This document shows, in pieces, positions 4,081-28,266 of a stretch of DNA of 32,000 nucleotides (the first letter of the stretch is position 1; each line of letters opens with the position of its first letter). The notes beneath the pieces were generated by a model. It did no database searches and was not told the origin of the DNA. It saw nothing but the letters and a program-made list of their open reading frames with translations. The DNA is from Candidatus Saccharimonadota bacterium. GTDB taxonomy: Bacteria; Patescibacteriota; Microgenomatia; UBA1406; GWC2-37-13. The translations under genes and the position numbers were made by a program. The stretch covers positions 990,001 through 1,022,000 of the forward strand of contig MGBH01000001.1 of NCBI GenBank assembly GCA_001790095.1. The letters run 5' to 3'.

Positions 4081-4140
4081 GCAAGATAGTATACTATACT
4101 ATCTTATAGTATACAAGCTTATTATACTAATTACTCTTCC
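4081..4140 (-). promoter_or_regulatory. promoter/operator-like region upstream of the HExxH lipoprotein gene
   Basis: On the minus strand, TATACT (4093..4088) lies 7 nt before ATG 4080, and a further TATAAT lies upstream. The region consists of repeated tagtatac/tatact words, including the inverted repeat gatagta-tacta-tactatc (4085-4103). Confidence 0.3.
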
Positions 4141-5007: not shown

Positions 5008-5058
5008 ATAAATTCATGATATAGACAAAGCAGTGCTTTTACAAGATCTATCTCTGTT

Positions 5059-11346: not shown

Positions 11347-11410
11347 TAGATAACAAATATTTTATATTTGAAATGTCTATTTGAGATCTACCATTTGAAA
11401 TTTGACATAT
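11309..11410. terminator. long imperfect heptamer-repeat hairpin between convergent genes (candidate bidirectional terminator)
   Basis: Left arm is tcaaatc tcaaatg tcaaaag tcaaatc tacat. Right arm is atttgaaatgtctatttgagatctaccatttgaaatttgacat. It lies between the HIT gene (+) and the PilX-like gene (-), and overlaps both 3' ends. Confidence 0.45.
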
Positions 11411-12292: not shown

Positions 12293-15200
12293 TTATTGTA
12301 TCTGTTTCCAATCATACATACTTATTGACAAATATGGCAACAAATCAAGATATTGACGTTGATCCATAGCGATAAACAATGATGGTCTTTGTAAATTTTG
12401 AAGTTGCCTTCCGTTTTCAAAGGTAGGCGTACCTGATTGATGAACAAGACCCCCTTTTATTTTAAGGGCAAGGTCTTCAGTATTGCCTGTTGTTACATTG
12501 TTGCCAATCAAAATCGCTTGCACCTCAGTGACAGTTGAGGAGATGGTAATATCTCTTGCAACGATCGCTATTGCAGCATTACCAACCGATGCGCTGTTTA
12601 AATCAATATTGATTCCAATCCTATTCTGATCAGCTACAAGAACAATTTTTTTGTTAACAAAATAAGATGAGTCGTTTATGTCTATGTCACTTCCCACATA
12701 ATAGATTCCATCTCCCACAATATCTGCAAGCTGCGTAATAGTCTTGTATTCCTTACGTGACTTCATATACTCTGCGTATTTTGTTGGAGTAAAGCTATGA
12801 AGCTGTATATAGGATGTGTTATACCAGTTAGGCTCTGAGTATTGAGTCGCATTTGGACCAAGTCTTAGATTGCCAGCACTTAAGATGCCACCTGCATTAT
12901 TCACAATAAGATATTTGTCAAGCGTATCGTCCGTATCTGAGTCTGTATATTTAAGCATGTTGTTGGGGATGATGCTTGACCTGCCAGATCTAAGATTGTC
13001 ATAAGAAACGTTACCCATCTTAAGCCACGATGAGGGAACAGAGAAAAATACAGGAATCGTTGGGACTACGCCGGGTGGCACAATGGGGGTTGGAGTAATA
13101 CTCCCTCCAAACGGTGTAGGGGTGGGAGGAAGCGGTGTTGCGGTTGGAATGGGTGTACTGGTTGGACTCACTTCTCCTGTTGGGATCGGAGTTAGAGTCG
13201 GACCGCCAGGAGTAACAGTTGGGATCGGAGTTAGAGTTGGACCGCCCGGAGTTATGGTTGGAGTCGGGGTCAGAGTTGGTCCGCCCGGAGTTATGGTTGG
13301 AGTCGGGGTCAGAGTTGGTCCGCCCGGAGTTATGGTTGGGGTTGGCGTTGATGTAGGGCCAACGGGTGTTGGAGTTAAAGTTGGCGTTGAAGTTGGAGCG
13401 TTAGTTGGGGTCGGTGTCAGAGTCGGACCGCCAGGAGTTATAGAAGGAGACGGAGTAGGACTCAAAAGACAGATTGTTATTATCTCAAGATACTCCCCTC
13501 CACATTGATTACTTTGACGCCAATCAACATTACCATAATCGCCATAAGTAGCAGAAAGAGTCATGTCAAAGCATGGCGGTATACAATCTCCTCCTTGATT
13601 ATCAACAATAAGGTTGCAACTATAGTTGGAGGGTGTTTTTGTACAAGTAGATGTGACACCAGGAGGTACGGTGACTTGTAGATCAAGCTGGTCCGGATCA
13701 ATATTCATACTTGTACTACAACTTGTACCTAAATCTTCAATATATTTTCCTTGGATATTGATAGTTGGATAGGGAGATGGAGTAGGTATGGTATAGATAG
13801 TAGTAGTCCAGCCTGAGGTATTGGTAAAACTATCCCGCGCCCTTACTCTCCCATAAAAAGTAGTTCCTCCTGGATATGATTGCTGAAGTGCCTGCTGTGT
13901 CGTATTGACCCAACTATTACTCCAACCTGAAGCAAGAGGACTATAGTCACTTTCTGTTGATACCTCTGATTGATATGGAAGAGCATTTAAACCACCACAT
14001 CCTCCATCGGTAGTTGTGTTCCATTTATAAGAGGCAAAATAATTTTCTCGGCAGTCAGGATCCGGATAAATGCTAACAAATGCTGCTCCACCTGGGGGAG
14101 TTGGAGCTGTTTGATCTATTGAAAGAGCGCGGCTTGGTGCAGGAATAGCAGGTGTCGTACATTTGATTGGAGCAGCTGTTGAACGTCCTCGTGCGCCCCA
14201 GTAATAAGTACCTGTACCAGTTACGCTACATGAGGCATAGCTAACAGGATTTGCGCTTGCAAGCCATCCGCTGTTACAACTCCACGGACTACCAAAACCA
14301 GTATCAGTATCTACTCCAAACTGTATCTGGTCTGAACAAGTATCATATGAGGCTGAAAGAGCGGGAATATTATTATAGCAACCTGATGCTGGCGACTGTC
14401 CGCTTACTCCACAGGTTGGAGCTATAAGATTATAGTTATATACTGTCGAACAGGTCTCTGCTGCTCCGTTTGAAGCACATATTTGAGCTGTCCCACTCCA
14501 TGCGCTTAGCGATATAGTATTATCCGTCCTTGCCGTATAGAGAATTCCTGTTTTTACTTCCACCCCGTTGATCAACAAACGGAATTGGTTGGTACGGGTT
14601 CCACATACGTATCCCCATCCTTGACTACACCCGTTGTTGTTATTGGGAAAGGTCCAGTCAACATCATACCGTTGAGTACAACCAGCCGCAGTATATAATG
14701 TCACTGAACTTACTACGGGTTGCAGGGGTGATGAATCAATACAGCAAGAACGTGAATCAGTTCCTCCACATGCAACTGAAGGAGAGCTACATGAACAAGC
14801 ACAGTTATTCTCAGCTCCAGGATTACAGGTTCGCTCTTCATTGCCGGTCCCACATGCAACACTACAAGAACCCCAGCTTCCCCAGCTTGCAGTACGGGTC
14901 GTACCAGCAGGAGTACATGTATCAACTCCTCCATTATAACCAGGTATCCATCCGCATGATGCACCAGTGCATCCGACATGCTGACCCGTACAGGTAAACC
15001 CAGCCCAGCTTGTTTGGCATCCGCTATACGGATAACTTTCTCCTGACTTTATACCCTGAAGAGCTTGTTCATAATAAGTGTCAGGACTTACGCTCACGTA
15101 GATGCTCGGTTGCGCCACCGGAGCAATAAACTGATCTCCTGCAGCGGGTGAATTCCAATCACCAAGTGGGCTTTTGTTTAATCGAACAGCGTATGCAGCA

Positions 15201-15868
15201 GCCCCAGCTAATGTATTCCAAGATATGGCAGCATTTGCTCCCCTTGTAGAACAGGAAACAACCACGTTGCTTGTACAGGGAAGTGGGGTTGGAGTGGGAG
15301 TGGATGTGGGGATGGGAGTAGATGTGGGGATGGGAGTGGATGTGGGGATGGGAGTAGATGTGGGGATGGGAGTAGAGCTGGGAGAAAAAACTGTAGGGAC
15401 GGGAGTAGAGCTGGGAGGAACTGTAGGAACTGGAGTATCTCCAGGCTCTTCAGTAGGACTCACACATGCATCACAACAACCAACTACCGAATTATCTCCC
15501 GATCCACCTATACATGGATAATAGGTACTATATTTAGTTGCACAATTACACAGTCCCCCTGGAACAGTTACTTCACAAACTGAAGAGCAAAGTATTGGAG
15601 AGTCACATCCATGAGTCACATTTGCACAATATCCAGTATCAACAGGCCCTATCCATTGACATGATTCGCAGCATATATCTCCAGGATGGTTCCAGCTATC
15701 ACCACTACAACTAGGTCCTCCTCCTACTCCACAATAACCCACTGGACAATCATAAGCAGCATGTAATAGTGTTGGTTTTATCACAAAAAAACTGAAAACA
15801 AATATGTTCACTATAATGAATAGCATTATTTGTTTATTGCTCTTGTTTTTAACACTTAAGATGTTCAT
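12293..15868 (-). CDS. large secreted/surface protein: Cys-rich N-terminal module, Pro/Thr tandem-repeat linkers, TSP1-like motif, unknown C-terminal domain
   Basis: 1191 aa. N-terminal anchor/signal 'IMLFIIVNIFVFSFFVI'. Dense Cys in residues ~40-135. (STPIPT)n and (TPTPTITPGGPTL)n repeats. 'SWGSWGSCSVACGTGNEERTC' at residues ~327-349. Confidence 0.6.
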   Translation of the reverse strand: MNILSVKNKSNKQIMLFIIVNIFVFSFFVIKPTLLHAAYDCPVGYCGVGGGPSCSGDSWNHPGDICCESCQWIGPVDTGYCANVTHGCDSPILCSSVCEVTVPGGLCNCATKYSTYYPCIGGSGDNSVVGCCDACVSPTEEPGDTPVPTVPPSSTPVPTVFSPSSTPIPTSTPIPTSTPIPTSTPIPTSTPTPTPLPCTSNVVVSCSTRGANAAISWNTLAGAAAYAVRLNKSPLGDWNSPAAGDQFIAPVAQPSIYVSVSPDTYYEQALQGIKSGESYPYSGCQTSWAGFTCTGQHVGCTGASCGWIPGYNGGVDTCTPAGTTRTASWGSWGSCSVACGTGNEERTCNPGAENNCACSCSSPSVACGGTDSRSCCIDSSPLQPVVSSVTLYTAAGCTQRYDVDWTFPNNNNGCSQGWGYVCGTRTNQFRLLINGVEVKTGILYTARTDNTISLSAWSGTAQICASNGAAETCSTVYNYNLIAPTCGVSGQSPASGCYNNIPALSASYDTCSDQIQFGVDTDTGFGSPWSCNSGWLASANPVSYASCSVTGTGTYYWGARGRSTAAPIKCTTPAIPAPSRALSIDQTAPTPPGGAAFVSIYPDPDCRENYFASYKWNTTTDGGCGGLNALPYQSEVSTESDYSPLASGWSNSWVNTTQQALQQSYPGGTTFYGRVRARDSFTNTSGWTTTIYTIPTPSPYPTINIQGKYIEDLGTSCSTSMNIDPDQLDLQVTVPPGVTSTCTKTPSNYSCNLIVDNQGGDCIPPCFDMTLSATYGDYGNVDWRQSNQCGGEYLEIITICLLSPTPSPSITPGGPTLTPTPTNAPTSTPTLTPTPVGPTSTPTPTITPGGPTLTPTPTITPGGPTLTPTPTITPGGPTLTPIPTVTPGGPTLTPIPTGEVSPTSTPIPTATPLPPTPTPFGGSITPTPIVPPGVVPTIPVFFSVPSSWLKMGNVSYDNLRSGRSSIIPNNMLKYTDSDTDDTLDKYLIVNNAGGILSAGNLRLGPNATQYSEPNWYNTSYIQLHSFTPTKYAEYMKSRKEYKTITQLADIVGDGIYYVGSDIDINDSSYFVNKKIVLVADQNRIGINIDLNSASVGNAAIAIVARDITISSTVTEVQAILIGNNVTTGNTEDLALKIKGGLVHQSGTPTFENGRQLQNLQRPSLFIAMDQRQYLDLLPYLSISMYDWKQIQ
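13188..13343 (-). repeat. 4 x 39-bp coding tandem repeat (TPTxTPGGPTLTP units)
   Basis: Units at 13188-13226, 13227-13265, 13266-13304 and 13305-13343. Units 3 and 4 are nearly identical. A partial further unit lies around 13408-13440. Confidence 0.85.
15296..15385 (-). repeat. about 4.5 x 18-bp coding tandem repeat (STPIPT units)
   Basis: gggagtRgatgtggggat repeated from 15296 (15296-15313, 15314-15331, 15332-15349, 15350-15367, then degenerate). Confidence 0.85.
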
Positions 15869-15877
15869 ATATTAAAT

Positions 15878-16687
15878 TCAATCAATTCTATTTACAGTAC
15901 TAAACAGCAATAGATTAGGATCCAAGACACCATTTTCTAGAAAGTTCATTAACGAAGTATGATAATTTGGATCTTCTAAAAAAGGCTTCATTACGTTTTG
16001 ATAGAAAACCCAATTAGAATCCATACCTCTAAGACTGGTAAATTGTAGTAAGATCATTACGTCTCCTCGTTGAGCGTTTGAAGTAAAAGGATGTGATTCT
16101 TCAATAAAGCTTTTCCACCAATTAAAATCTTGTAACTGTTCAGGGGTGGGAGCAAAAGTTATACCCGCCTGACTCATAAATGTCGTTGTGGCTTCTATCG
16201 TCTGTCCATTGATATATATTGTGCCATCAGAAGCTCTCACAACAAGGTTTTGCGCAAAATTGACAACCTGTCCATCTATAACATAACTACCTTGAAATCT
16301 AACCAGTGAGTCTCCTACTCTTTCCTCGTTTAAATATAGAGGTTCTGCCCCATATTCTGCTCCATGATAAAAAGCACGTATATTATACCAATCTGTTCTG
16401 TTGTCTCCGCTTTTGGTAGACGAGGCGAAAACATCTTTATATTTAGAACCAACCTTTATTTCAATCTGTTTGTTTAATGGCAATAATGTGAACTTTTTTT
16501 CTTCTTCCTTTTCGCGGATATACTGAACAAGCAGTATCATAATAAAGACAAATTCGATAAAAAAGATAAAGAAGAATAAAAAGAAAATAGGACTTGGTTT
16601 TTTACGCCTAGCGGTGCGAGAAATATCATTATGAAGCGGGTGATTTACAACCATATATTCATTATAACGCAACTGCAGAAAAATCAA
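15878..16687 (-). CDS. membrane-anchored protein carrying the shared ~177-aa C-terminal domain (paralogous to the C-terminus of the 801-aa lipoprotein)
   Basis: 269-aa track ORF that starts at TTG. The more likely start is ATG 16654 (MVVNHPL...), with TATAAT (16666..16661) 6 nt upstream. TM segment 'IFFLFFFIFFIEFVFIMILLV'. Residues 93-269 are almost identical to the C-terminus of the 17974..20379 product. Confidence 0.6.
   Translation of the reverse strand: MIFLQLRYNEYMVVNHPLHNDISRTARRKKPSPIFFLFFFIFFIEFVFIMILLVQYIREKEEEKKFTLLPLNKQIEIKVGSKYKDVFASSTKSGDNRTDWYNIRAFYHGAEYGAEPLYLNEERVGDSLVRFQGSYVIDGQVVNFAQNLVVRASDGTIYINGQTIEATTTFMSQAGITFAPTPEQLQDFNWWKSFIEESHPFTSNAQRGDVMILLQFTSLRGMDSNWVFYQNVMKPFLEDPNYHTSLMNFLENGVLDPNLLLFSTVNRID
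15899..16413. repeat. 515-bp direct repeat, copy 1 (partner 17998-18512)
   Basis: Constant offset of 2099 nt with no indels. 16015-16413 equals 18114-18512 exactly (399 bp, checked line by line). A ~62-bp patch (15954-16014) carries ~23 substitutions. The distal ~55 bp are identical again. Confidence 0.9.
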
Positions 16688-16712
16688 AGCTAAAAAATAC
16701 TATAATAAAACC

Positions 16713-18002
16713 ATGGTTAGTTATCTTCCAAAAACCATCTTTGTTTTGTTTTTTACCCTTATTTTTTTACTTGAGGGCCTATCTTTTAAAAAAGGAAGAG
16801 AGATCTCATATGTACTTATTTTGTGTATGCCGTCTTTTTTATTTTACCTTCATTTTATGTTTAAAAATAGAATAAAATTAAGCCCGTTTGTGGGGTTTGT
16901 CAGCGCCCTTTATATTGTGTTTGTTTCGTTGTCTGCTCTTTCCTCTAAACAAATAAACGTCTCTATTGAGGGCGTATTACTTACAATTGCAGTCGTCTCA
17001 CTTTTTATTTATTCTTCATACCATAGAGACGAATTACAAAACATAGTCCTTGCTATGATAATGATTTTGTCATTTGTTTTTATCAGTCGTCATGTTTTGT
17101 ACCGATTAATACCAATTGATTTTGGAGGTCTACTTACTTTATCAGCATTTCAGTTTTTTTACTCTTTTTATCCAAACCATAATCAGCTTGGGACTTTTTT
17201 AACTCTTCCAATAATTACATGTTTTTTTTATCTCTTTTTTACTGCACCTTCTGTAAAGACACCAACAAGTGAGTCGTTTATCAAAAAGACAATGTCGTGG
17301 CTTCTTACAAAAAAACATATATTACTTATACTCTTTTACTTTCCTTTTTTTATTTTTTCTTATTCCCGCTCGAGTTACAATTCCGTATTTTGGACCTTTA
17401 TCCTGATGTTGTTCTATAATAGAAAAATTCTTTTTTCAAACAATTTTTTTTCTAAGAAAAAGATCGTTTTTATTATTTTGTTTGGAATCATTGTTTTGCT
17501 TATGTTTTTTATCACTGTAGAAGAAGTAAAAAGTATTCCGATTATATCTTCTCTTCATGTATGGTTACAAAAATATGCAGGTCTCGGTGGAAAAAGTTTT
17601 CTCTCAGGAAGATTCTTAATGTTCTCTGACATGTTACAAAGAGCTGAAGGAAAATACTTATTAGGGCTCGGCAAACCTCTTATATACTCTCAATCATATA
17701 CTCTCCATACAAATATTGGGTGGCCATCCCATAGTCTGATAGTCGACATCATCGCAAAACAGGGTTTGTTAAGTTTTTTTGCTTTTGTATTACTTCATGT
17801 AGTTATATTTGTCAAATCAGATAAAAGAAGTGTTTTTTTCTATCTCTGGATCAACCTTTTCATTAATTTTCTTACAAATTGGAGCTACACATTCTATTCT
17901 TTATATTGTATATACTTTATCCTACCTGGATTGATCCCTGTTATCCTTTCTTCATCTACTCAAAATAAACAATTTATTCGATCATTCTACCCAATTGACT
18001 AA
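16713..18002 (+). CDS. polytopic membrane protein, O-antigen ligase/polymerase (Wzy_C)-like
   Basis: 429 aa with many TM segments. 'FSYSRSSY' and 'SGRFLMFSDML..GLG..WPSHSLIVDIIAKQGLLSFFAFVLL' resemble the Wzy_C pattern (SR..., R..w, G-x-G, aHN.yl..l.e.G..G). TATAAT at 16701-16706 lies 6 nt before the ATG. Confidence 0.5.
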   Translation: MVSYLPKTIFVLFFTLIFLLEGLSFKKGREISYVLILCMPSFLFYLHFMFKNRIKLSPFVGFVSALYIVFVSLSALSSKQINVSIEGVLLTIAVVSLFIYSSYHRDELQNIVLAMIMILSFVFISRHVLYRLIPIDFGGLLTLSAFQFFYSFYPNHNQLGTFLTLPIITCFFYLFFTAPSVKTPTSESFIKKTMSWLLTKKHILLILFYFPFFIFSYSRSSYNSVFWTFILMLFYNRKILFSNNFFSKKKIVFIILFGIIVLLMFFITVEEVKSIPIISSLHVWLQKYAGLGGKSFLSGRFLMFSDMLQRAEGKYLLGLGKPLIYSQSYTLHTNIGWPSHSLIVDIIAKQGLLSFFAFVLLHVVIFVKSDKRSVFFYLWINLFINFLTNWSYTFYSLYCIYFILPGLIPVILSSSTQNKQFIRSFYPID

Positions 18003-20379
18003 ACAGCAATAGATTAGGATCCAAGACACCATTTTCTAGAAAGTTCATTAATGAGGCATGATAAGTTTCATCATTTAAGAAGGATGCCATAAAATTTTGA
18101 TTGAAAGTCCAGCTAGAATCCATACCTCTAAGACTGGTAAATTGTAGTAAGATCATTACGTCTCCTCGTTGAGCGTTTGAAGTAAAAGGATGTGATTCTT
18201 CAATAAAGCTTTTCCACCAATTAAAATCTTGTAACTGTTCAGGGGTGGGAGCAAAAGTTATACCCGCCTGACTCATAAATGTCGTTGTGGCTTCTATCGT
18301 CTGTCCATTGATATATATTGTGCCATCAGAAGCTCTCACAACAAGGTTTTGCGCAAAATTGACAACCTGTCCATCTATAACATAACTACCTTGAAATCTA
18401 ACCAGTGAGTCTCCTACTCTTTCCTCGTTTAAATATAGAGGTTCTGCCCCATATTCTGCTCCATGATAAAAAGCACGTATATTATACCAATCTGTTCTGT
18501 TGTCTCCGCTTTCTTGAGAGGAGATAAAGACATTTTCAAGAGAATCCATACCCTGCTCTTCTGCCATTTCTTGCACTCTTGTTTCCCATAGCTTTGCGTC
18601 AGCTTCTCTAACAACCGATAAATCTGATAGAGCTATCTGAGATGTATCTTTAGGAGTTTGCACCCAGACTGATACATCACGATTTTGATCTACGAAAAAG
18701 GGGTTACTAAGACCAATGGTTATGTCTGCTTCTCCTTCTTGAATAATAGTTACAGAAAGTCCATCTTCTGAGATACGTATTGATCCATCAAATACCGCGC
18801 CTCCGGCAGAGGAAGAAAAACTCGCAAGCTCTGTCCTATCCACACTGCCCCCTCTTTTGCTGATAAACCCTTCGCTTTGCAATATCCAGTTTCCGTCTCT
18901 TTGCAAGAGATACAGCTTATTGCCCGATGATCCGTCTTGAGATGATATAAATACCAAACCGCTTTCATAGGATCCTTCTGTTTGCACTTCCATCTGTGCA
19001 TGCAAAGCTCTGTTTGGATTTGCATCAACAGTAAAACTACCAACCCCTGCACTTTCTCTATAGATAGTTGACTCCCCGATAAGCTGCTGCTCAACGACCG
19101 ATGGCGCATCAATCTGAGGGACTCCATCCAAATTACCCGTATACTCACTTATCGGCATATATGCTGCATGCTGTACTCCATCATTTTCATAGGTTACTAC
19201 AACAAACGTGTCACTGATAACACCTGTTGCTTGTATGACTACTCCCTCTGCTGGTGAGTTAAGTGAGTTTGCAAAAGAGTCAGGCATGTCATATATACGT
19301 AGTGTACCTGTGCTTGTCATCGTTTCAGCTACTTCTCCTGACTCTTGTGTTGATTCTTGTGTCGGTTGCCCTGCTACTGGCTGATCTGCGGCAACGAGCA
19401 TGATATCAGGATTTATACGGGTGACATTGACCCAACTCACCAAAGCTCCATCATTGTTATAATATCCAAGTATGATTTGAGTAGTGGAAGGATCACCGTC
19501 TCCTAAATTGTCATAGGTTAAATAAGGATGAGTGCCTGGCGGCGCCTCAACCACAGCAAGCTCAAGTAGATCATAATCTGTGGCACTTAAGCCCTGAGGT
19601 AAAAGTGATTGAAATGGAAAAAATGTTTGTGCGCTTTCATCCCAAACTTGCGGTAGGATAAAATTATTTGTACCTCTTTCAAAAAAAGCCATTGACCATC
19701 CATCCTGAGGCACTGAACGGGTTATGTAATAATAGTGCTGATCAAACCAACTCTGGATCGCATCATCTGAGGCAGGATCAACCTGTTCGTTTGGGTGAGC
19801 GATATTCCAATCCTGTACCAGCTTATTGGTCATCAGCTGTAGATATTGTGTTGCCAGCTGTGCTCTGTCGGCAGAATATTCTGGGTCCGAGGAATCAAAA
19901 ATGTGCGGTCTATCAGGATCATAATACGTATCAGAACTATCTATGTGTGATCCCATCCTGCTCACATTTACCCCATCAGGAATCGGTGCAAAATTGCTTG
20001 AGCTTGCTGGATATGCATAAACAAGTTGGCTTTCTGGAGTATTTGTTACAGTTGAAGTAGCTGTAGATTCTTGGGTATTAGTAGCGTGTAAAGTAGGCGT
20101 AGCCCTTTCTTGAGTTGAAGTAGCTGACGCTGTAACTGTGGGAGTAGCAGTATCAGTAGCTGTAGATGTAGATGTAGCTGTAGCTGTCTCAGTTTCGGGT
20201 GCTCCTGGACTTCCGCATCCTGCCAACACCAATGATGCTGCAGCAGGCATTGCCACTCTTGCAATAGGAGATCTCATTATCTGTCCACCATAAACAGCTG
20301 GCTTTACACCAGCTCCGTTTACGTTACTAATTGCACTTTTATCAAGGTTTTTTGAATGACGCGTATGCAACTCACCCAT
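17974..20379 (-). CDS. surface lipoprotein with Thr/Ser/Ala-rich linker and shared C-terminal domain
   Basis: 801-aa track ORF. The likely true start is ATG 20277 (MRSPIARVAMPAAASLVLAGC, lipobox LAGC), preceded by GGTGGA. Low-complexity 'ETETATATSTSTATDTATPTVTASATSTQERATPT' follows the lipobox. The last ~178 aa are shared with the 15878..16687 product. Confidence 0.65.
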   Translation of the reverse strand: MGELHTRHSKNLDKSAISNVNGAGVKPAVYGGQIMRSPIARVAMPAAASLVLAGCGSPGAPETETATATSTSTATDTATPTVTASATSTQERATPTLHATNTQESTATSTVTNTPESQLVYAYPASSSNFAPIPDGVNVSRMGSHIDSSDTYYDPDRPHIFDSSDPEYSADRAQLATQYLQLMTNKLVQDWNIAHPNEQVDPASDDAIQSWFDQHYYYITRSVPQDGWSMAFFERGTNNFILPQVWDESAQTFFPFQSLLPQGLSATDYDLLELAVVEAPPGTHPYLTYDNLGDGDPSTTQIILGYYNNDGALVSWVNVTRINPDIMLVAADQPVAGQPTQESTQESGEVAETMTSTGTLRIYDMPDSFANSLNSPAEGVVIQATGVISDTFVVVTYENDGVQHAAYMPISEYTGNLDGVPQIDAPSVVEQQLIGESTIYRESAGVGSFTVDANPNRALHAQMEVQTEGSYESGLVFISSQDGSSGNKLYLLQRDGNWILQSEGFISKRGGSVDRTELASFSSSAGGAVFDGSIRISEDGLSVTIIQEGEADITIGLSNPFFVDQNRDVSVWVQTPKDTSQIALSDLSVVREADAKLWETRVQEMAEEQGMDSLENVFISSQESGDNRTDWYNIRAFYHGAEYGAEPLYLNEERVGDSLVRFQGSYVIDGQVVNFAQNLVVRASDGTIYINGQTIEATTTFMSQAGITFAPTPEQLQDFNWWKSFIEESHPFTSNAQRGDVMILLQFTSLRGMDSSWTFNQNFMASFLNDETYHASLMNFLENGVLDPNLLLFSQLGRMIE
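17998..18512. repeat. 515-bp direct repeat, copy 2 (partner 15899-16413)
   Basis: See copy 1. Confidence 0.9.
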
Positions 20380-20418
20380 ATTTTTGAGATCGGAAAATAT
20401 AACCTATATTAATAGTAT

Positions 20419-20447
20419 ATTATCTCATAGTTTTGTCAAGCTGTCAA
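20419..20447 (-). promoter_or_regulatory. sigma70-type promoter, TTGACA-17 nt-GATAAT, upstream of the lipoprotein gene
   Basis: On the minus strand: TTGACA (20447..20442), a 17-nt spacer, then GATAAT (20424..20419). A second overlapping TTGACA lies at 20439..20434. Confidence 0.55.
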
Positions 20448-20493
20448 TGATTTTTCGCTTTCCAACGGTCTATACATAACAAATATGTATATG

Positions 20494-23400
20494 CTACATC
20501 ACGTTCTGAAACTGCATTTTTTGTAACATCTCCATGACTCTTTCATTCCAAATAGCGCCTTGTTGTGCGGGGGTTAGACTGGCGACTTTTCCTTCAATAT
20601 CTTCCAGTCTGAAAAAATAATACGCTTCATCCAACACGTCCTGGAAATCACTCCACATTTCCCGCTTCATTTCATCAGCCATAGCTTCTTTCCCCGCTCT
20701 CATCCTGTCTGGTAGATTCGAGGCTGCCTCTGTCACAGCAAGAACACCTGAAGGTAAAACCTGAATCTTTCCTCGGACATGAGGCGGGAGCTGAACCTGA
20801 GCTGTTCCTAGCTTGGCTACTGCAAGTCCTAATGGAGTTCGACCCTCAGCCATATGGATGCCATGAGATTCGCGCACGCGAGCTGGTAAAAACTCATCAA
20901 GCCATGATCCTGCAAAGGTGATTTGAGGTAATTTTAGACCCGCTTTTATAAGACTTTCTGACCCTCCTTGTGGAGGAGCGGGTTCAATAAGAATTTGCCC
21001 CTTGTGCGGATCTATTGTCTTTTTAACCGAGCGTTCTGACAGCTCCGTCATAACTCTCACATATTGGTCCAACTTCCCCATAAATGCCATCTGCCACTCA
21101 CGAAGCCGTACATCTTTGATACCTATGTCAAGCAATGCCCTTTTTCTTTCTTCCTCTTGAGCACGAAGGTGAATGAGGTGCTCTTGAAACAGCTCTGTTT
21201 GCGCTTCATTGTCTCCCTTGATAGCCTGTTTCCAAAGATATTCAAATCGTTTGAGGCGTTTTTCGTGGAGCATATCTGCTCCATAGGCCCATTGTGTCAG
21301 GGGCGGTATAGATATCCTATCTATTAAATAAGCATTAGCAGGATCTCTTATATCTTTTTCTGATAATATCAAGTGTCGTAATCCTGGAATATCGCCCCTG
21401 CCTACACGCTGCAATTCTTGCCAAAGCTCGCGCTCAGTTGTGGCTCCTGACACAAATACCTCAGGCCCTCCCCGATCAATCACAGCCTCTTCCAGATTGT
21501 CCAATTGAAAATCCCGACGCGTCATTTGGCTCGTGATGACGATCGTGCCTGCGGTACAACCTGTTAAGGCCTTTTGAAGCGAACCACGCTCTTCAAGCTC
21601 TTCAGATGCAGTCACGACCCGAAGCCATGGTGGCCTCTCTATAGGAAGAGCTACTTGTGAGCTATCTCCTAGTTTTATTTGACGAAGCACCCGAAGTGCT
21701 CTCGGCCCACTAATTTCACGTTCTGCTTCTTCCATACTAACTACTCTCTGCTCCACTGTGTCTTCCTTACCCTTACCCTTACTAAGAAGTAAAAGGTGTT
21801 TTAAGATTTCTTCCTCCCTTGCCTCCATACTTTCTTGATTAATGAGTATTGATCCAGATTCATTTAACATTTTGATCGCTTGTTCTAAAAGATGTGCCTC
21901 CTGTGCATCGCGCATGATAAAAAGACCAACTCTTCCTTCTCTTTGGATACGTTTTGCCTCTTGAAAAAGCCTAAGCATTTTTCTTTCCTCAGATACAAAC
22001 ATCACATCAGCCAATCCTCCATCTAGACAGGTGGTTTGAAGGGTGTCGATTTTGTGTTTTGGCTGTCTTACCTGTTCATGCCTTTCTATTCTCAACACCT
22101 CAGCCTCATAAATATCCGCATAAGAGGATGCTACAGGGATAAGAGAACCTGAGGTAAATCTCAGCTTTTTATATTGTTTAAAGAGCTCAATAGGCGCTAC
22201 ACTATTGGTCGTACGCGACACCTTCATCTCATTAACAACTCGGTCGTAAAGGAGTTGAAACTGCGCATTGTCAATCCCCCTTTCTTTTTTTTCGTCCTGC
22301 TCCCATATGTTTTTTAACCGCAAAAAGACTTCATGTAAACCCTCAAGTTGTCTCTTTTGAAGAGGAAAGCCGCTCTCATCAAGGAGCGTTGCTTCTTTAC
22401 CGCCCAGATACTGCTTCTGCTCCTCTGATGCAAAAACGGTTTCAAGGGCACATCTGATCATGTCTGCGTCCTGCTCAACTATCACGTGTCTTGTTTGTGT
22501 ACCTCCACTTTGCGGGTCGGTTGAAAACTTAAAATATGATTGATTAATCTTGCTTAATACATCCTGAAGAATAGCTGAGGCTCTGTTATATGCTCTTTCT
22601 GATAGTTTTATGTGATCTCCTGCTTTAAAATAGTCCCTACCCTCACCTTCTTCAAAAAGATCCTTATATTCATATAGAGCATCCCAAAAACTAATAAGTA
22701 TTTCTTGTGTAATCTCTTGTCTTAAATCAGAAGGCATTGTCTTTCTTTCGAAACCCTTTATTTCTTGCATGGTTCTATCTCTTAAAGAGGAGGGTTTTCG
22801 TTTTTTTCTAGATTTTCTTATTTCTTGCGCAAGCCTATTTCGTTCCTCAACAGGCATTATGTCTTGTTCTCTTTGAACCTCTCTTATTCCCATCCATTTA
22901 TCAATATATTCCCATGCTTTTGCTCCCTGGATCGTCTCACTTTGGATCCATGTCTCATGGGCACGATCAAGCATCTCATCATCTGCTTCCTGCACAAGCG
23001 CTATTCTCCCCTGTTTGCTGTAAAAACCCGGGTCAATGGCTGTCACAGTTTTACCTGGTTGATAGTATTGAGACGCATGATCAAGATAAGTAAAACCGAC
23101 AGCATCAGTGGTTGCATATAGTATGGTGCTGTCCCAAACTTCCTGATGAGCTTTCTTGCCTTTTTGGGGGACTAGTTTACCGTTTTTATATATATACTCC
23201 AACCTTGTCCCCACAGGATCTCCTCCCCTCTCATTTTCTTCAACAGATAGATCTGTAGCCACACCTACTCTTATCCCGAGTTTTTTTGAATAAAAATCTC
23301 CTATGTTTTCTGCATGCTCCAAAGCTTTTGCATAAGATTGTTCAAGGATATGAACTTTTTCTCCCTGAAGGGCAAACATTGCTGCGATAAGCGCATTGGC

Positions 23401-23919
23401 TTCTGTTTTTCCCTCTCCCGTATCAAGCTGGATACCCCTGTTATCTGTCTCAAGTTTGCCGAATATATACTCACCCTTATTCAAAAGCATCTGCGTCATA
23501 TAACAAAGCTGGTTGTCGCGAAACACAAACTTCTTTCCCCTTTCAGCGGCATGCTGCTCATACAAAGCAGCCATATAGGCAGTTGTATCTTCAGCCCATT
23601 GGAGCTCTTTTTCTCCCCCTTTTGGAATACTTTTCCATCCTTCCCTTAATCTTTCCGTCACTTTTTGTCGTTTTTCTTGTTTTATCGCGGTTTTTTTATA
23701 TTGACTACGTAATTCTTTTATGGTTGGAAGAGAGTAAGTATAAAATTCATCCTGCATTTTGCCTGACCTGTCAATTGAGGCGAGTGTGCCAAACCACCCT
23801 TCTGCAGTTCTTTTTTCTTGCCAAGAAAAAAAACCTTTTGTTTGAAAAGGGTCATAGACCTTGGAGCGTTTTCTTTGTGGGGATGGATCTCCTTGTAGTC
23901 CTGTCTCTACTACTTGCAT
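20494..23919 (-). CDS. highly diverged SecA-family (SecA-like / accessory-SecA-like) protein
   Basis: 1141 aa, colinear with SecA (consensus recalled from memory). The pairs below give this protein first and SecA second. 'LDTGEGKTEANALIAAMFALQGEKVHIL' versus MRTGEGKTL..YLNAL.GKGVHVV. 'ILYATTDAVGFTYLDH' versus ITYGTNNEFGFDYLRDN. 'ALVQEADDEMLDRAHETWIQS' versus [20 protein letters not shown]. 'LLDESGFPLQKRQLEGLHEVFLRLKN' versus IVDEFTGR.M.GRR.S.GLHQAIEAKE. 'TSQMTRRDFQL' versus TNMAGRGTDI. 'GRGDIPGLRHLILSEKD' versus GRQGDPGSSRFYLSLED. Several catalytic-motif residues are substituted. There is an extra ~130-aa N-terminal extension. Confidence 0.7.
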   Translation of the reverse strand: MQVVETGLQGDPSPQRKRSKVYDPFQTKGFFSWQEKRTAEGWFGTLASIDRSGKMQDEFYTYSLPTIKELRSQYKKTAIKQEKRQKVTERLREGWKSIPKGGEKELQWAEDTTAYMAALYEQHAAERGKKFVFRDNQLCYMTQMLLNKGEYIFGKLETDNRGIQLDTGEGKTEANALIAAMFALQGEKVHILEQSYAKALEHAENIGDFYSKKLGIRVGVATDLSVEENERGGDPVGTRLEYIYKNGKLVPQKGKKAHQEVWDSTILYATTDAVGFTYLDHASQYYQPGKTVTAIDPGFYSKQGRIALVQEADDEMLDRAHETWIQSETIQGAKAWEYIDKWMGIREVQREQDIMPVEERNRLAQEIRKSRKKRKPSSLRDRTMQEIKGFERKTMPSDLRQEITQEILISFWDALYEYKDLFEEGEGRDYFKAGDHIKLSERAYNRASAILQDVLSKINQSYFKFSTDPQSGGTQTRHVIVEQDADMIRCALETVFASEEQKQYLGGKEATLLDESGFPLQKRQLEGLHEVFLRLKNIWEQDEKKERGIDNAQFQLLYDRVVNEMKVSRTTNSVAPIELFKQYKKLRFTSGSLIPVASSYADIYEAEVLRIERHEQVRQPKHKIDTLQTTCLDGGLADVMFVSEERKMLRLFQEAKRIQREGRVGLFIMRDAQEAHLLEQAIKMLNESGSILINQESMEAREEEILKHLLLLSKGKGKEDTVEQRVVSMEEAEREISGPRALRVLRQIKLGDSSQVALPIERPPWLRVVTASEELEERGSLQKALTGCTAGTIVITSQMTRRDFQLDNLEEAVIDRGGPEVFVSGATTERELWQELQRVGRGDIPGLRHLILSEKDIRDPANAYLIDRISIPPLTQWAYGADMLHEKRLKRFEYLWKQAIKGDNEAQTELFQEHLIHLRAQEEERKRALLDIGIKDVRLREWQMAFMGKLDQYVRVMTELSERSVKKTIDPHKGQILIEPAPPQGGSESLIKAGLKLPQITFAGSWLDEFLPARVRESHGIHMAEGRTPLGLAVAKLGTAQVQLPPHVRGKIQVLPSGVLAVTEAASNLPDRMRAGKEAMADEMKREMWSDFQDVLDEAYYFFRLEDIEGKVASLTPAQQGAIWNERVMEMLQKMQFQNVM

Positions 23920-25051
23920 AGTTATTATTGTATACCATAGAGCCTTTATGAGCCAGGAGATTTTGATAATGATATAACATGTGTTTTGCGTGGTAGTTTT
24001 TTATCCGTCTCAAAGATTGATCCGCATAATAATCGCGGATATGTCTGTCTGAAATAATAGTTGACATGTGTTTGGCCAAGCTCTTACTGTTTTGCATGGG
24101 AAACAACAAACCATATTTATTTTTTCCCAGGATCTCCCCTGGACCATAAGGAGTATCTGAACTTATGACTGGCAAACCGTAGGACATCGCCTCAAGTATG
24201 GCATAAGGGTACCCATCCCAGAGTGAAGAATAGACAAAACAGTCAGCCTTTTTTAGCAGTCGTCCTACATCATGCTGCCAACCATAAACAACTATGCGTG
24301 ATGAGATGTTTAGCTCGTTGATTTCTTTAAGTATCTTGTTTTTGTCTTCTCCATCTCCTACAAGATATAAATATGCTCTGGAGTACTTTTTTGTTATGGT
24401 AGAAAACGCCTTTAAAATCGTTGCTATGTCTTTTTGAGGGGAGAAGCGTGAAATGGTGATAAATATAAAGTTCCTTGAAGGTGATTTTTTTCTCGTAGGT
24501 ATTCTTTTTGTACCGTTATATATAACTTTAATCTCATGTTTTGGATAAAAGTACTTCTCCAAACCGCTTTTAACCCCCTGGGAAACCGCTATATAGATAT
24601 CGCTCTTGTCGTGAAATATAAGTCTCCCGGCCACCTTTAATAAAGGTATTAATACAGAATTCGATTTTGTCTTAAAAACCATCTCTACATTATTATGAAA
24701 AGTAAAAATGCTCTGTTGAGGAAACCAATTTATAAGCTTAACCAATCTCCATAATAAGCCTGCATGAAAATCAACACAGAGTACTTTATCCGGCTTCTTC
24801 TTTTTAACAAGCGCACTTATTAATACTATTTCTTTACATAGCAAAAAGAGGTTGGAGGGGGTCAGTGCATAGAAGGACGGAAGACTCTTTTTTGAAATAT
24901 AGGTGATATTGTGCTTTATTTTGCTTTCAACAGGTGACGGAGAAGGCTCCAGACATACAGTATGAAACTCCATGCTTTTTATGTTTGTAAGCTCTAAGAT
25001 AAACGTTCCAGTACCGCCACTTACACTTTTTGTAATAGTAAGGACCATCAT
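23852..25051 (-). CDS. GT4-family (glycosyl transferases group 1) glycosyltransferase
   Basis: 399 aa. N-terminal 'SVSGGTGTFILEL'. C-terminal-half motif 'YPYAILEAMSYGLPVISSDTPYGPGEIL' is typical of GT-B/GT4 enzymes. The 3' end overlaps the SecA-like ORF start by 68 nt. Confidence 0.8.
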   Translation of the reverse strand: MMVLTITKSVSGGTGTFILELTNIKSMEFHTVCLEPSPSPVESKIKHNITYISKKSLPSFYALTPSNLFLLCKEIVLISALVKKKKPDKVLCVDFHAGLLWRLVKLINWFPQQSIFTFHNNVEMVFKTKSNSVLIPLLKVAGRLIFHDKSDIYIAVSQGVKSGLEKYFYPKHEIKVIYNGTKRIPTRKKSPSRNFIFITISRFSPQKDIATILKAFSTITKKYSRAYLYLVGDGEDKNKILKEINELNISSRIVVYGWQHDVGRLLKKADCFVYSSLWDGYPYAILEAMSYGLPVISSDTPYGPGEILGKNKYGLLFPMQNSKSLAKHMSTIISDRHIRDYYADQSLRRIKNYHAKHMLYHYQNLLAHKGSMVYNNNYASSRDRTTRRSIPTKKTLQGL

Positions 25052-25086
25052 GTGTAAATCATTGTATAATACAAATCGTTGATCTT

Positions 25087-26352
25087 ATGCATATAATATT
25101 TCTACTTTTAATCCTTGTTCTTAAACTTCCCTCATTTTACTTTCTGCCTTCCTCATCTTCCCTATTTACAAGCCACTCCCTAGTAAAAATAGGGGTCGTG
25201 CTTATTGCTATGTATATGTTGTACGATGAAAAAATTCGAAGAGCGGCAGGGCGAGCAGTTTTGTCAAACATGCCAATTATCCTTTTCTTGTTTTCGCAAT
25301 CAATCTCAGTCATATGTGCGAAAGATGTTGGATTGTTTTGGAAAAGTTACCATAATTTACTTATCAGCATCCTTATCTTTTTTAAGGCTGCGCTGTTGTT
25401 TGGAAAAAGAAGAAATCTTATTGTCCGTTTTTTATTTTTAGTTGCCATTATAACGACAGGGCTTGAAGTGGCTCTATATCTTGTCCCCAAAGATCTATTC
25501 AGACTCTTGCCTTTTCAGAGCGAAATCCTTGATGCCTTTATCGTTAATCTTGACCGCAACAGATTTTCATTTGAGTCTCATAATGAATTTTTACTTCTTG
25601 TTTTGTTGTTTGTTTCTTTTACTTCCTTGTCCAAAAAAAGGAGATTCGTTGGCCTGATCATAAGCGTAGTATTGATCGCTTTATCGTTTTATTCATCAAA
25701 TCGCACTCGACTCATTTCGCTTATGGGTGCGTTGATATTTTTTATAGTTTCTTTTTTCCATCTTCGTTTCATAAATCATAAGGGAAGATCTGCTAATATT
25801 GTCTTTACTCTTATAGCTGCTTTTGTCTTTGTATTTATTCTATTTCCTCCAAGAGCAATGTTTGAAAGAATTTTTGCTCCCTCTGAGTCCTCTGATTATG
25901 AAACGATTATTTTCCGTATCGATTCGATCAAACACTCTGCTTTACTTCTTCAATCTTCTCCCTTGCTGGGGGTTGGTCTTGGAAACTACCCCCTATATCC
26001 AGCAATACATAGATATGTCCCACCATATGAATTTGGCAAATCAGCTCAAAACAGATATGACAAAGCTGTTCCAGCCTCACCACACAATATATTTGCTCAA
26101 GTTGGTGCTGAGACAGGAATTGTTGGTTTGGGATCGTTTGTTTTCCTCATTTTCTGGTTTATCAGAAAAGACGTAGAGATGTGGCGAAAAGGTAAAGACA
26201 TAAAGATGGTGCTTTCGTTTTGTTCGTGGATTATATTCTTAACTTTTCTTTTCAACCCATCTCATACACTGTATATATCTGGATGGTTTTGGTTTTTAAG
26301 AGGAGTTATTTATTCTAAAAATCATTCAATCCCCTTGATCACAAAATCATAG
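25087..26352 (+). CDS. O-antigen ligase family (Wzy_C domain) membrane protein; PglL/WaaL-like
   Basis: 421 aa, polytopic. 'YSSNRTRLISLMGA', 'GVGLGNY' and 'SPHNIFAQVGAETGIVGLGSFVFLIFWF' match the Wzy_C signature well. TGTATAAT lies at 25063-25070 upstream. Confidence 0.7.
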   Translation: MHIIFLLLILVLKLPSFYFLPSSSSLFTSHSLVKIGVVLIAMYMLYDEKIRRAAGRAVLSNMPIILFLFSQSISVICAKDVGLFWKSYHNLLISILIFFKAALLFGKRRNLIVRFLFLVAIITTGLEVALYLVPKDLFRLLPFQSEILDAFIVNLDRNRFSFESHNEFLLLVLLFVSFTSLSKKRRFVGLIISVVLIALSFYSSNRTRLISLMGALIFFIVSFFHLRFINHKGRSANIVFTLIAAFVFVFILFPPRAMFERIFAPSESSDYETIIFRIDSIKHSALLLQSSPLLGVGLGNYPLYPAIHRYVPPYEFGKSAQNRYDKAVPASPHNIFAQVGAETGIVGLGSFVFLIFWFIRKDVEMWRKGKDIKMVLSFCSWIIFLTFLFNPSHTLYISGWFWFLRGVIYSKNHSIPLITKS

Positions 26353-27203
26353 AAAGAGTAGTGTGGGGTAGTGATAGTCAGGTATTTTCCCGGAATCAGT
26401 GTCTGCTCTTGGGCAAAGATAAGATTGCCGTCTTTTTGCTCCACCATAACCTTGGCTTTTACGGTGATGCTTATTCTTTGGGATGAAACAGAGGGGTCAA
26501 TAAAACGACCCTGCTCGACAGCAAAAGCCTGCGTATCGTCCCCCACGGCTTTTTCAGTAATTTTAAATACCGCATCTGTACCATCAAAATAGGTATCTCC
26601 CACACGTATGCTTTCATACTCCCACGGATGGGCATATTTTTTTTCTAAAGTAACTGTTTTGTGTTCGTAAACCTCACGAAAAGGAACCGTATCTATCTGC
26701 GTAACCGTGCCGCTTATAAAAGATGATGAAAGATCCAACTCAATCGGCATCCCCACACTTATGGGAGATCTTTTAAAACTATAGCTTCCGGATCTTCCCA
26801 TGCTTGTCACTTTGAGACGGGTTGTGATATATACATCAAACTGGTTGGTGATTCCGTTTATTGATCCCCATGGATAATAACGCACCGACAAAATCTCTGC
26901 AACTGGTTTGCCAATTATGTCTTTCTCGAGAACATTATTTTTTATAGCTTTGACAAACCAGACAGGAGCTTTTGCAGTTGAAGCCCACCACATACCCTGT
27001 CCAAGCTTGACTCTTGCATATATATAGGTTGGCTTTGTCACAAACAGTTTATATAGAGAAACTAATCCTACAGACAGTATGCAAAGGATAAAGATCCCAA
27101 CGATATAGTTTTTGTAAAATAAATGAAGAAGTTTCTTAATAGCTCTTTTGTTCCTTTTTGTCTTCATATGCGTATAATATAGCAAATGAAACACAAATCT
27201 CAA
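26322..27203 (-). CDS. membrane-anchored hypothetical protein
   Basis: 293-aa track ORF. The likely start is ATG 27167 (MKTKRNKRAIKK...). Single TM 'IVGIFILCILSVGLVSLYKLF', followed by a beta-rich extracytoplasmic region. No family recognised with confidence. Confidence 0.5.
   Translation of the reverse strand: MRFVFHLLYYTHMKTKRNKRAIKKLLHLFYKNYIVGIFILCILSVGLVSLYKLFVTKPTYIYARVKLGQGMWWASTAKAPVWFVKAIKNNVLEKDIIGKPVAEILSVRYYPWGSINGITNQFDVYITTRLKVTSMGRSGSYSFKRSPISVGMPIELDLSSSFISGTVTQIDTVPFREVYEHKTVTLEKKYAHPWEYESIRVGDTYFDGTDAVFKITEKAVGDDTQAFAVEQGRFIDPSVSSQRISITVKAKVMVEQKDGNLIFAQEQTLIPGKYLTITTPHYSFYDFVIKGIE
27173..27179. promoter_or_regulatory. overlapping divergent -10 boxes (TATAAT on +, TATTAT on -) in an 18-bp divergent gap
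   Basis: Plus strand: TATAAT at 27173-27178, 7 nt before ATG 27186. Minus strand: TATTAT at 27179..27174, 6 nt before ATG 27167. Confidence 0.35.
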
Positions 27204-28013: not shown

Positions 28014-28266
28014 AATAGAAAAGGGTTTAATTGCACAACGCACAACAAAAAGGATGACTGTCTTTGACTCAAAAAATTTAACTTTTTTTACCTTCAATGA
28101 AACCGCTCTTTATATTTTTAATTGCCTTAAAAGGGGGTTTGATGACAAAGAATTGGTAAAACGAATGATGAAACGCTATCAGATAGATAAAATACAGGCT
28201 GAGAAGGATTTAGAAGAATTTATACAGCTCTTGAAAAAGGAAAAAATCGTCTCACTAAAGAAATAA
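28003..28266 (+). CDS. PqqD-family protein (RiPP recognition element, RRE)
   Basis: 87 aa. 'TVFDSKNLTFFTFNETALYIFNCLKRGFDDKELVKRMMKRYQIDKIQAEKDLEEFIQLLKKEKIV' fits the PqqD pattern (..LN.ta..iw.l.dG..t..el...l...y.v....a..D...fl..L...gli). Confidence 0.8.
   Translation: MRYKIEKGLIAQRTTKRMTVFDSKNLTFFTFNETALYIFNCLKRGFDDKELVKRMMKRYQIDKIQAEKDLEEFIQLLKKEKIVSLKK

Follow-up and report, generated by a model that had tools for sequence, protein, structure and literature searches.

Wzy_C-family enzymes, exported proteins and a divergent SecA paralog in a reduced envelope cluster of a Candidatus Roizmanbacteria genome

Why would a bacterium without lipopolysaccharide (LPS) carry two Wzy_C-family membrane proteins, relatives of WaaL, among exported proteins and next to a SecA-like protein? 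This question is raised by a stretch of 32,000 nucleotides (nt) of contig MGBH01000001.1 (positions 990,001 to 1,022,000), called the window here. The host, a tiny groundwater bacterium, is assigned to Candidatus Roizmanbacteria within the Candidate Phyla Radiation (CPR). The window is also matched by contig MGBF01000001.1 (1.217 Mb; assembly GCA_001790045.1, Candidatus Roizmanbacteria bacterium RIFOXYB2_FULL_38_10), where window positions are offset by +980000. CPR bacteria have no outer membrane and no LPS, and lipid A-core is therefore an improbable acceptor for the enzymes. An earlier note on this DNA had suggested that the Wzy_C proteins act on adjacent low-complexity proteins instead, and all the open reading frames (ORFs) that it named were found in place. 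Based on comparison with related loci, the region from 11.4 to 29.5 kb of the window is a rearranged, reduced copy of an envelope cluster conserved in Roizmanbacteria-like CPR bacteria. Our leading reading, to which we give somewhat less than even weight, is that one or both Wzy_C enzymes may O-glycosylate proteins while the SecA-like protein may serve dedicated export. The central genes (lengths in amino acids, aa) are the following.

25087-26352, + strand: intact WaaL-fold Wzy_C membrane enzyme, 421 aa, assigned from Pfam Wzy_C and from AlphaFold2 (AF2) and Foldseek; divergently oriented from the GT4 gene
23852-25051, - strand: GT4 glycosyltransferase (Glyco_transf_4, E 2e-10; Glycos_transf_1, E 1e-34)
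20494-23919, - strand: rare divergent SecA paralog, 1141 aa, with NBD1-PPXD-NBD2 and family-specific N- and C-terminal regions (SecA_DEAD, hhalign)
17974-20379, - strand: lipoprotein, 801 aa, with LAGC lipobox (Cys55), long N-terminal region and a Thr/Ser/Ala tract at aa 56-101; putative cargo of the SecA-like protein
16713-18002, + strand: divergent, C-terminally truncated Wzy_C paralog, 429 aa; homologs carry Wzy_C, and the gene is syntenic with 544-565-aa genes in the comparison loci L006, L008 and L012

The comparison loci are metagenome and genome loci with relatives of both Wzy_C proteins and of the SecA-like protein, and they were compared with the window gene by gene. Synteny of the core genes extends over at least six independent loci despite protein identities of 25-45%, so that the grouping goes beyond chance; as judged from this order kept across distant relatives, the genes of the island are functionally linked. 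The recurrent set comprises the GT4 gene adjoining the 421-type Wzy_C gene, a DUF4330 protein and a TPR-tailed Wzy_C protein, together with an HPr-kinase-related/ScmC-like protein, a PqqD chaperone and NTP_transf_5. Additionally, the syntenic relatives carry Bac_transf (a small phosphoglycosyltransferase, PGT), a WecG/TagA GT26 enzyme and an NAD-epimerase adjoining the same GT4/Wzy_C genes, and their loci further contain LtaS-like sulfatase-family enzymes, GDSL esterases, one or more carbamoyltransferases and GH10-domain lipoproteins. The window has none of these. Collectively, the gene set of the relatives supports well that the cluster encodes a polyprenol-phosphate-linked glycan pathway. 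The earlier note had argued partly from the missing polysaccharide genes; this argument is weakened, because the absence is local and the syntenic relatives carry Bac_transf, WecG/TagA, epimerase and LtaS-like genes. Its remark that no LPS-core genes are evident holds, as neither LPS nor LPS-core genes were found among the scanned window ORFs or in the flanks.

The 421-aa protein is the better defined of the two Wzy_C proteins. It matches Pfam Wzy_C (PF04932) at E 1.3e-14 (54.6 bits, cutoff 31.7). Its AF2 model (pLDDT 83, pTM 0.85) has one significant Foldseek match in the PDB, WaaL (7TPG; E 7.3e-6, TM-score 0.54-0.56), and the next match is RodA at E 0.77. Moreover, R206, R277 and H333 are invariant across 24 sequences of the 421 type, and their spacing equals that of the catalytic residues of E. 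coli WaaL (R215/R288/H338) and PglL (R224/R298/H349) (PMC3643930). In phmmer searches against PDB sequences, neither the two Wzy_C proteins, nor the SecA-like protein, nor the GT-C candidate described below gave anything useful; profile searches alone were informative.

The genes of the relatives would also fit a different use for the Wzy_C proteins. In a wall-glycopolymer pathway, the GT4 enzyme, WecG/TagA GT26 and Bac_transf would make an undecaprenyl-linked repeat unit that one Wzy_C would polymerise or pass on, giving a secondary cell-wall or teichoic-acid-like polymer, and the adjacency to surface-protein genes would reflect a general envelope neighbourhood. We consider this explanation rather unlikely, but it is the strongest of the competitors. 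The WecG/TagA, Bac_transf, epimerase, LtaS-like, GDSL and carbamoyltransferase genes beside the same GT4/Wzy_C genes in relatives fit it, and Pfam Wzy_C, which does not distinguish ligases, O-oligosaccharyltransferases (O-OTases) and some polymerases (PMC3643930), leaves room for it, as does the absence of the PglL_A motif. However, the invariant Arg/Arg/His triad has the WaaL/PglL spacing that is typical of ligases and OTases, and no Wzx-type flippase, chain-length regulator or LCP ligase occurs in the window or in the Pfam lists of the related loci. Furthermore, different lineages keep the TPR-tailed Wzy_C linked to a giant secreted protein, although these secreted proteins have no detectable homology to one another.

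This linkage involves the second Wzy_C gene. The 429-aa protein has no Pfam match at E<=10, an NCBIfam assignment failed as well, and its similarity to the 421-aa protein is weak (E 0.014-0.024). Wzy_C matches at E 1e-11 to 1e-18 were obtained for each of its four full-length relatives, which align with it at 26-28% identity and 91-98% coverage, and by transitive homology the 429-aa protein is a Wzy_C member. The relatives, with 548-565 aa, have one extra transmembrane (TM) helix and a helical tail of ~130 aa; the 429-aa protein ends before this tail and is shorter at its C-terminus by a ~130-150-aa extension. The tail gives sub-threshold TPR matches (TPR_8, E 0.002; TPR_12, E 0.04) and weak PDB matches to TPR proteins. 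A Wzy_C + TPR architecture has been described for WsfB, an O-OTase of monoderm S-layers, and for PglL (PMC2943079). At the positions aligned with the triad, the 429-aa protein has R219, R302 and H340, and the His is not kept in two of the four relatives. The two Wzy_C proteins announced by the earlier note are thus of unequal standing: the 421-aa protein is assigned directly, and the 429-aa protein is truncated, lacks a direct match and enters the family through its homologs.

The exported proteins and the repeats around the 429-aa gene are as follows.

15899-16413, no strand assigned: direct repeat copy 1, 515 nt, 95.7% identical to copy 2
17998-18512, no strand assigned: direct repeat copy 2, 515 nt, inside the 3' end of the 801-aa gene
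15878-16687, - strand: TM-anchored protein, 269 aa (TM at aa 36-54), with a copy of the C-terminal domain of the 801-aa lipoprotein
12293-15868, - strand: secreted Cys-rich protein, 1191 aa, 52 Cys, with two long Pro/Thr/Ser linkers (N-terminal signal/anchor, tracts)
15227-15469, - strand: first Pro/Thr/Ser linker of the 1191-aa protein, aa 134-214 (81 aa), with 18-nt tandem repeats
13043-13483, - strand: second Pro/Thr/Ser linker of the 1191-aa protein, aa 796-942 (147 aa), with 39-nt tandem repeats
11410-12198, - strand: pilin-like protein with PilX_N-type N-terminus (PilX_N, E 7.6e-4, below threshold), downstream of the 1191-aa gene

The TPR-tailed Wzy_C gene is invariably back-to-back with the gene for a giant Cys-rich secreted protein, in the window as well as in L006, L008 and L012, where the positional analogues of the 1191-aa protein have 807-1028 aa. 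In L008 and L012 it also lies near the genes for a ~280-aa protein (PilX_N in L012) and a DUF87 ATPase. The order in the window (Wzy_C-429, 269-aa, 1191-aa and PilX_N-like) matches that of the relatives, and the pilin-like protein is 29% identical to the PilX_N protein at the equivalent position in L012. Between lineages, BLASTP detects no homology among the large surface proteins; L015 has a 422-aa homolog of the 1191-aa protein (34% over 313 aa) adjoining the SecA-like module. The targets of O-OTases such as PglL are Ser/Thr residues of low-complexity regions, and the enzyme genes frequently neighbour those of the pilins that they modify, with pglL-pilin adjacency in 21 of 31 genomes (PMC3643930).

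The three exported proteins with Pro/Thr/Ser/Ala linkers or a common domain, as the earlier note had described them, are borne out by the signal/anchor, the LAGC lipobox, the TM anchor and a 209-aa C-terminal domain that the 269-aa and 801-aa proteins have in common at 81% identity. The second linker of the 1191-aa protein is polymorphic in length, because the copy number of its 39-nt repeat (13 aa, TPTPTITPGGPTL) differs among otherwise identical assemblies (L014), giving 1191 or 1178 aa. None of nine segments of the 1191-aa and 801-aa proteins, each searched by itself, yielded a Pfam domain. Thrombospondin type-1 repeats are glycosylation targets in animals, and WGSWGSCSVACGTG (14843-14884; aa 329-342 of the 1191-aa protein) resembles their WxxW...CSxxCG pattern; the similarity is unsupported, as the segment scanned alone has no Pfam match.

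The 515-nt repeats, with a core of ~385 nt free of mismatches and copy starts 2099 nt apart, correspond to the domain common to the 269-aa and 801-aa genes and bracket the 5' part of the 269-aa gene and nearly the whole 429-aa gene. In L003, a contig from another sample, exactly 2099 nt are missing: a single recombinant repeat and a chimeric 800-aa lipoprotein gene are present, and the 429-aa gene is not. The contig of L004 breaks off within the repeat. The presence or absence of the 2099 nt reflects either strain-level deletion/insertion by recombination, with gene conversion, or assembly collapse. Together, the truncation, the motif loss described below and this presence/absence suggest that the 429-aa Wzy_C gene is dispensable or decaying.

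The SecA-like protein was identified as such by the earlier note, and profile searches agree. It matches Pfam SecA_DEAD at E 1.3e-14 (about 50 bits), and hhalign aligns its family with canonical SecA at a probability of 100% (E 4.6e-46) over 511 columns, corresponding to template columns 100-625 of 802. The alignment spans NBD1, the PPXD insert, NBD2 and the start of the scaffold helix; the wing, two-helix finger and C-tail are unaligned. The window protein and the family member P0041 match SecA_DEAD only, with no SecA_SW, P-loop_SecA or SecA_PP_bind match; in the same scan, canonical SecA proteins match SecA_DEAD, PPXD, P-loop_SecA and SecA_SW. Across 23 family sequences, Walker A (GEGKT), the motif II Glu (E311) and the arginine-finger positions (R838/R841) are invariant. 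The AF2 model of this protein, made from a 3-sequence alignment, has a pLDDT of 42 and is too poor for judging the fold. As a side observation, P0067, P0068, P0070 and P0071, second-tier matches of the family profile search, form a SecA-like class of ~640-660 aa with SecA_DEAD, PPXD and P-loop_SecA and no SecA_SW; they are unrelated to the locus.

The family is rare. A word-indexed search of 5.8 billion proteins found two relatives, and 1.84 billion cluster representatives, searched exhaustively with a profile, gave 29 SecA-like proteins at E<=1e-30, followed by a sharp drop to ordinary SecA at E ~1e-18. Among 185,579 species genomes, the gene occurs in four loci, of which one is from Roizmanbacteria and one from Patescibacteria; the other two are short contigs with a Proteobacteria bin assignment. 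The latter (L016 and L017, binned as Gammaproteobacteria and Pseudomonadales metagenome-assembled genomes) have CPR-type neighbours, DUF4330 or Bac_transf, and are probably binning contaminants.

The neighbourhood of this gene is as distinctive as its sequence, in a pairing that the earlier note had passed over. In all six loci with downstream sequence, the SecA-like gene is followed by a same-strand lipoprotein gene whose lipobox Cys lies at residue 47-64, and two of these six loci offer no alternative Met start that would shorten the long N-terminus. All six SecA-linked lipoproteins have a loose G-x-[LM]-x-[PD]-[VIL] motif in common; their mature domains differ, and one is GH10. In L012 and L013, which have no SecA-like gene, positionally equivalent GH10 lipoproteins bear twin-arginine signals instead. 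In syntenic L006, a lone 242-aa gene occupies the place that the SecA-like and lipoprotein genes take in the window. We infer that the SecA-like/lipoprotein pair is a module inserted between the GT4 gene and the TPR-tailed Wzy_C gene, truncating the latter. Consistent with a junction created by such an insertion, the 3' end of the GT4 gene overlaps the start of the SecA-like gene by 68 nt (23852-23919), through a C-terminal extension of ~25-30 aa that the GT4 homologs do not have. The composition of the region is uneven, with a GC content of 0.32-0.38 across the membrane-protein genes and of 0.42-0.47 across the large secreted-protein and SecA-like genes. The SecA-like protein looks like a new SecA2-like dedicated exporter.

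The overlap also bears on a route that would leave Wzy_C out. The linkers might be glycosylated by a GT-C protein that O-mannosylates the Pro/Thr (PT) linkers, for which actinobacterial PMT systems, which O-mannosylate during export, are a model, or by a cytoplasmic GT4 enzyme that modifies the Thr/Ser lipoprotein before SecA-like export. Both possibilities were missed by the earlier note, and we regard this route as distinctly unlikely. The membrane protein that it would need, and a promoter-like site that bears on it, are these.

664-2853, + strand (gene callers start at 679): ~10-TM membrane protein with C-terminal DUF192 (E 5e-12); GT-C-like (PMT_2/TMEM260-like) transitively only
20419-20447, - strand: best sigma-70-like promoter match of the region (11/12, extended -10), upstream of the 801-aa gene

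The 664-2853 protein itself has no direct GT-C match in Pfam, NCBIfam or the PDB. Among 13 relatives (48-58% identity), four match TMEM260-like (best E 2.6e-6), two PMT_2 (3.7e-6) and one Glyco_transf_22, and the first-loop motif H31-P-D-E-R-N36 (HPDERN) is invariant in 13 sequences. The PMT/ArnT-like GT-C enzyme proposed by the earlier note is thereby carried by its relatives, and the protein itself matches DUF192 only. That these relatives match protein O-mannosyltransferase families would favour the GT-C branch of the route; the assignment is nevertheless transitive and weak, and the gene lies 9 kb off, behind glycolysis genes. For the cytoplasmic branch, the GT4, SecA-like and 801-aa genes are co-oriented, in addition to the GT4/SecA-like overlap, the accessory Sec (aSec) system offers a precedent (PMC5578698), and the GT4 enzyme has sub-cutoff matches to SdgA, SdgB and GtfA (GtfA, 56.6 bits against a cutoff of 574.6). 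However, its best matches are generic, it pairs with Wzy_C-421 in relatives without a SecA-like gene, and a separate promoter-like site lies upstream of the 801-aa gene. SecY2, Asp1-3, GtfA/GtfB and a serine-rich-repeat substrate were found neither in the window nor in the related loci.

Two further observations concern the surroundings of the GT-C candidate. The region 2860-6108, between this gene and the glycolysis genes, encodes further exported proteins in a row. One is a 406-aa lipoprotein with an LVGC lipobox, another a 288-aa protein that contains 17 Cys, and another a signal-anchored member of the GH5 cellulase family. On its other side, 1-589 (- strand; the gene runs past the window) encodes the N-terminus of a 713-aa protein without a Pfam match, transcribed divergently from the GT-C candidate; this neighbour was considered as a GT-C paralog and rejected as a soluble coiled-coil protein.

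For the leading reading, namely Wzy_C-dependent O-glycosylation with dedicated export, the parts could work together as follows. The substrates of Wzy_C-family enzymes are undecaprenyl-diphosphate-linked glycans, which they use on the outer side of the cytoplasmic membrane. The GT4 enzyme would build a lipid-linked glycan, and WaaL-fold Wzy_C-421, ancestrally together with its TPR-tailed paralog, would transfer the glycan outside the membrane to Ser/Thr of the low-complexity tethers of the neighbouring proteins. The WaaL-fold enzymes are taken to modify proteins because these bacteria have no lipid A-core acceptor. The truncated 429-aa paralog would be decaying or dispensable, and the SecA-like protein would act as a SecA2-like export motor or a targeting factor dedicated to the adjacent lipoprotein. 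A more specific form is in our view unlikely: a third, hitherto undescribed kind of accessory SecA, in which a stripped-down NBD1-PPXD-NBD2 motor with new N- and C-terminal domains would recognise the extended N-terminus of the neighbouring lipoprotein and direct it to the surface, coupled to O-glycosylation of its tether by the WaaL-fold enzymes of the cluster.

Several observations weigh against the leading reading. On the glycan side, the PglL_A motif (PF15864), a criterion that separates PglL from WaaL (PMC3643930), has no match in the 421-aa protein (E<=0.01) or the 429-aa protein (E<=10), the 421-type profile is about equally near to WaaL (7TPG, E 2.9e-7) and to an O-OTase (9RMK, E 8.5e-6), and the sole O-OTase-specific match, to TfpM, reaches 25 bits where the cutoff is 600. 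The TagA-like, LtaS-like and PGT genes of the relatives would suit a wall glycopolymer equally, and no PGT, WecG or flippase is encoded in ~55 kb (the window with ~10 kb to its left and ~14 kb to its right). Moreover, the Wzy_C gene nearest to the PT-rich proteins is the degenerate-looking 429-aa gene, which is variably present and has no C-terminal domain; its product has G-L-G-K-P-L where the relatives have G-x-G-P-G-N, so that the motif Asn is gone, and the TPR assignment of the relatives' tail is itself sub-threshold. On the export side, the wing/two-helix-finger region is undetectable in the SecA-like family, both by Pfam and by hhalign, which ends at column 625; the Walker B Asp position is variable, with Q310 in the window protein; and SecY2 is in none of the loci. 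An SD-like (Shine-Dalgarno-like) GGTGGA precedes Met35 of the 801-aa protein. The long lipoprotein N-termini could therefore be partly start-codon artefacts, and the N-terminus of the window lipoprotein is uncertain.

Some of these points would also fit the absence of a working island, in which the genes would be neighbours by descent, the 429-aa Wzy_C a remnant and the SecA-like protein an inactive or repurposed relic. The truncated, variably present 429-aa gene with its lost motif, the variable Walker B position, the undetectable C-terminal SecA domains and the lack of PGT and WecG in the window all point that way. We consider such an outcome very unlikely: the gene order is kept at 25-45% protein identity, Walker A, the motif II Glu and both arginine-finger positions are invariant over the 23 SecA-like sequences, and the Wzy_C-421 triad is intact. 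The proposal that Wzy_C acts on adjacent proteins and not on lipid A-core gains from the CPR host and from the conserved linkage, and is held back by the missing PglL_A motif and by the equal distance to WaaL and O-OTases.

Beyond the 421-aa gene, the conserved set continues with these genes.

26322-27203, - strand: DUF4330 membrane-anchored protein, 293 aa, 33-42% identical to relatives and among the best-conserved cluster members
27186-29485, no strand assigned: HPr-kinase-related (ScmC-like) protein, PqqD-family peptide chaperone (28003-28266) and S26-peptidase-like/NTP_transf_5 fusion, co-conserved with the glycan cluster

The DUF4330 profile is matched by all seven family members (best E 5.9e-9); the window protein alone gives E 0.011, below the cutoff. 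The 27186-29485 set resembles the HPr-rel-A type or the type that matures ribosomally synthesised and post-translationally modified peptides (RiPPs), and L006, L012, L013 and L018 also keep it together with the glycan cluster. A defence-system reading, raised by a sub-threshold GT4-conflict match, was dropped after PADLOC was negative for eight proteins. Literature searches combining CPR with O-antigen ligase or glycosylation, on DUF4330, and combining SecA2 with Patescibacteria returned nothing relevant; the searchable literature is silent on Wzy_C proteins, DUF4330 and extra SecA paralogs in these bacteria.

Attachment to host cells is the presumed way of life of CPR bacteria, and it is probably controlled by their surface proteins and glycans. 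The locus offers candidates on each side: a GT4/WaaL-fold pair without LPS, PT- and Thr/Ser-rich candidate acceptors, and a rare SecA paralog with a candidate cargo. If the Wzy_C enzyme is an O-oligosaccharyltransferase, it would represent a distant new branch with possible use in glycoengineering; if it serves a wall polymer instead, the locus would reflect ordinary envelope biology. If the SecA-like protein is a dedicated exporter, the SecA2 concept would reach a distant lineage with a minimal domain set, which would bear on what a SecA motor requires. If the two are coupled, the locus would encode a joint pathway of export and extracytoplasmic glycosylation in minimal-genome bacteria. The SecA-like/lipoprotein module is the part of the locus most worth following.

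Compared with known systems, the glycan genes resemble the O-OTases PglL, PilO (TfpO), TfpM and WsaB/WsfB in the Wzy_C domain, the Arg/Arg/His triad and the WaaL-like fold. The TPR-tailed gene adjoins genes for what may be acceptors, namely a pilin-like protein and large Ser/Thr/Pro/Ala-rich surface proteins. Relatives of one paralog have a weakly TPR-like C-terminal tail of the kind described for WsfB and PglL, before which the window copy is truncated, and the cell is of the monoderm type, like the hosts of WsaB and WsfB. Unlike PglL-type O-OTases, the proteins have no PglL_A motif and negligible identity to characterised O-OTases, and the window has no initiating transferase or flippase. 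WaaL (7TPG) is the best structural and profile match of the 421-aa protein, with the same catalytic-residue spacing; the identity is, however, 14%, a lipid A-core acceptor is not expected in CPR bacteria, and the window has no LPS genes.

The relatives' combination of Bac_transf, WecG/TagA, GT4, epimerase, LtaS-like enzymes and O-acyl/carbamoyl modifiers with Wzy_C is like that of Gram-positive Wzy-dependent clusters. In contrast to these, the loci have no Wzx, chain-length regulator or LCP ligase, the ligase/OTase-type His is kept, and the window lost or never had the initiating genes. Like GT-C O-mannosyltransferases (PMT_2, TMEM260-like), the 664-2853 protein has ~10 TM helices and an acidic DE motif in loop 1, and its close relatives match profiles of these families; it differs from them in having no match itself, in its DUF192 fusion and in not adjoining the other island genes.

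Finally, the export genes were compared with accessory SecA2 systems, both the streptococcal SecA2/SecY2-Asp-GtfAB type and the SecA2-only type of mycobacteria, Listeria and Clostridioides. The SecA-like protein is far more divergent than SecA2, at ~50 bits to SecA_DEAD, with the wing and two-helix finger undetectable and the Walker B Asp not kept, and its family, unlike SecA2, is confined to a few Roizmanbacteria-like CPR lineages. It also differs from aSec in that SecY2, Asp1-3 and GtfB are absent and the candidate cargo is a lipoprotein, not a serine-rich-repeat adhesin (aSec features from PMC5578698). Nevertheless, as in accessory SecA2 systems, an extra SecA paralog lies beside a specific exported surface protein and glycosylation genes, and the N-terminus of the candidate cargo is atypically long. 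Additionally, a GDSL-type esterase is near in relatives, and Asp2 of aSec is an O-acetyltransferase. The glycan cluster is a further member of kinds already known, and the SecA-like/lipoprotein module represents a new version of the accessory-SecA concept.

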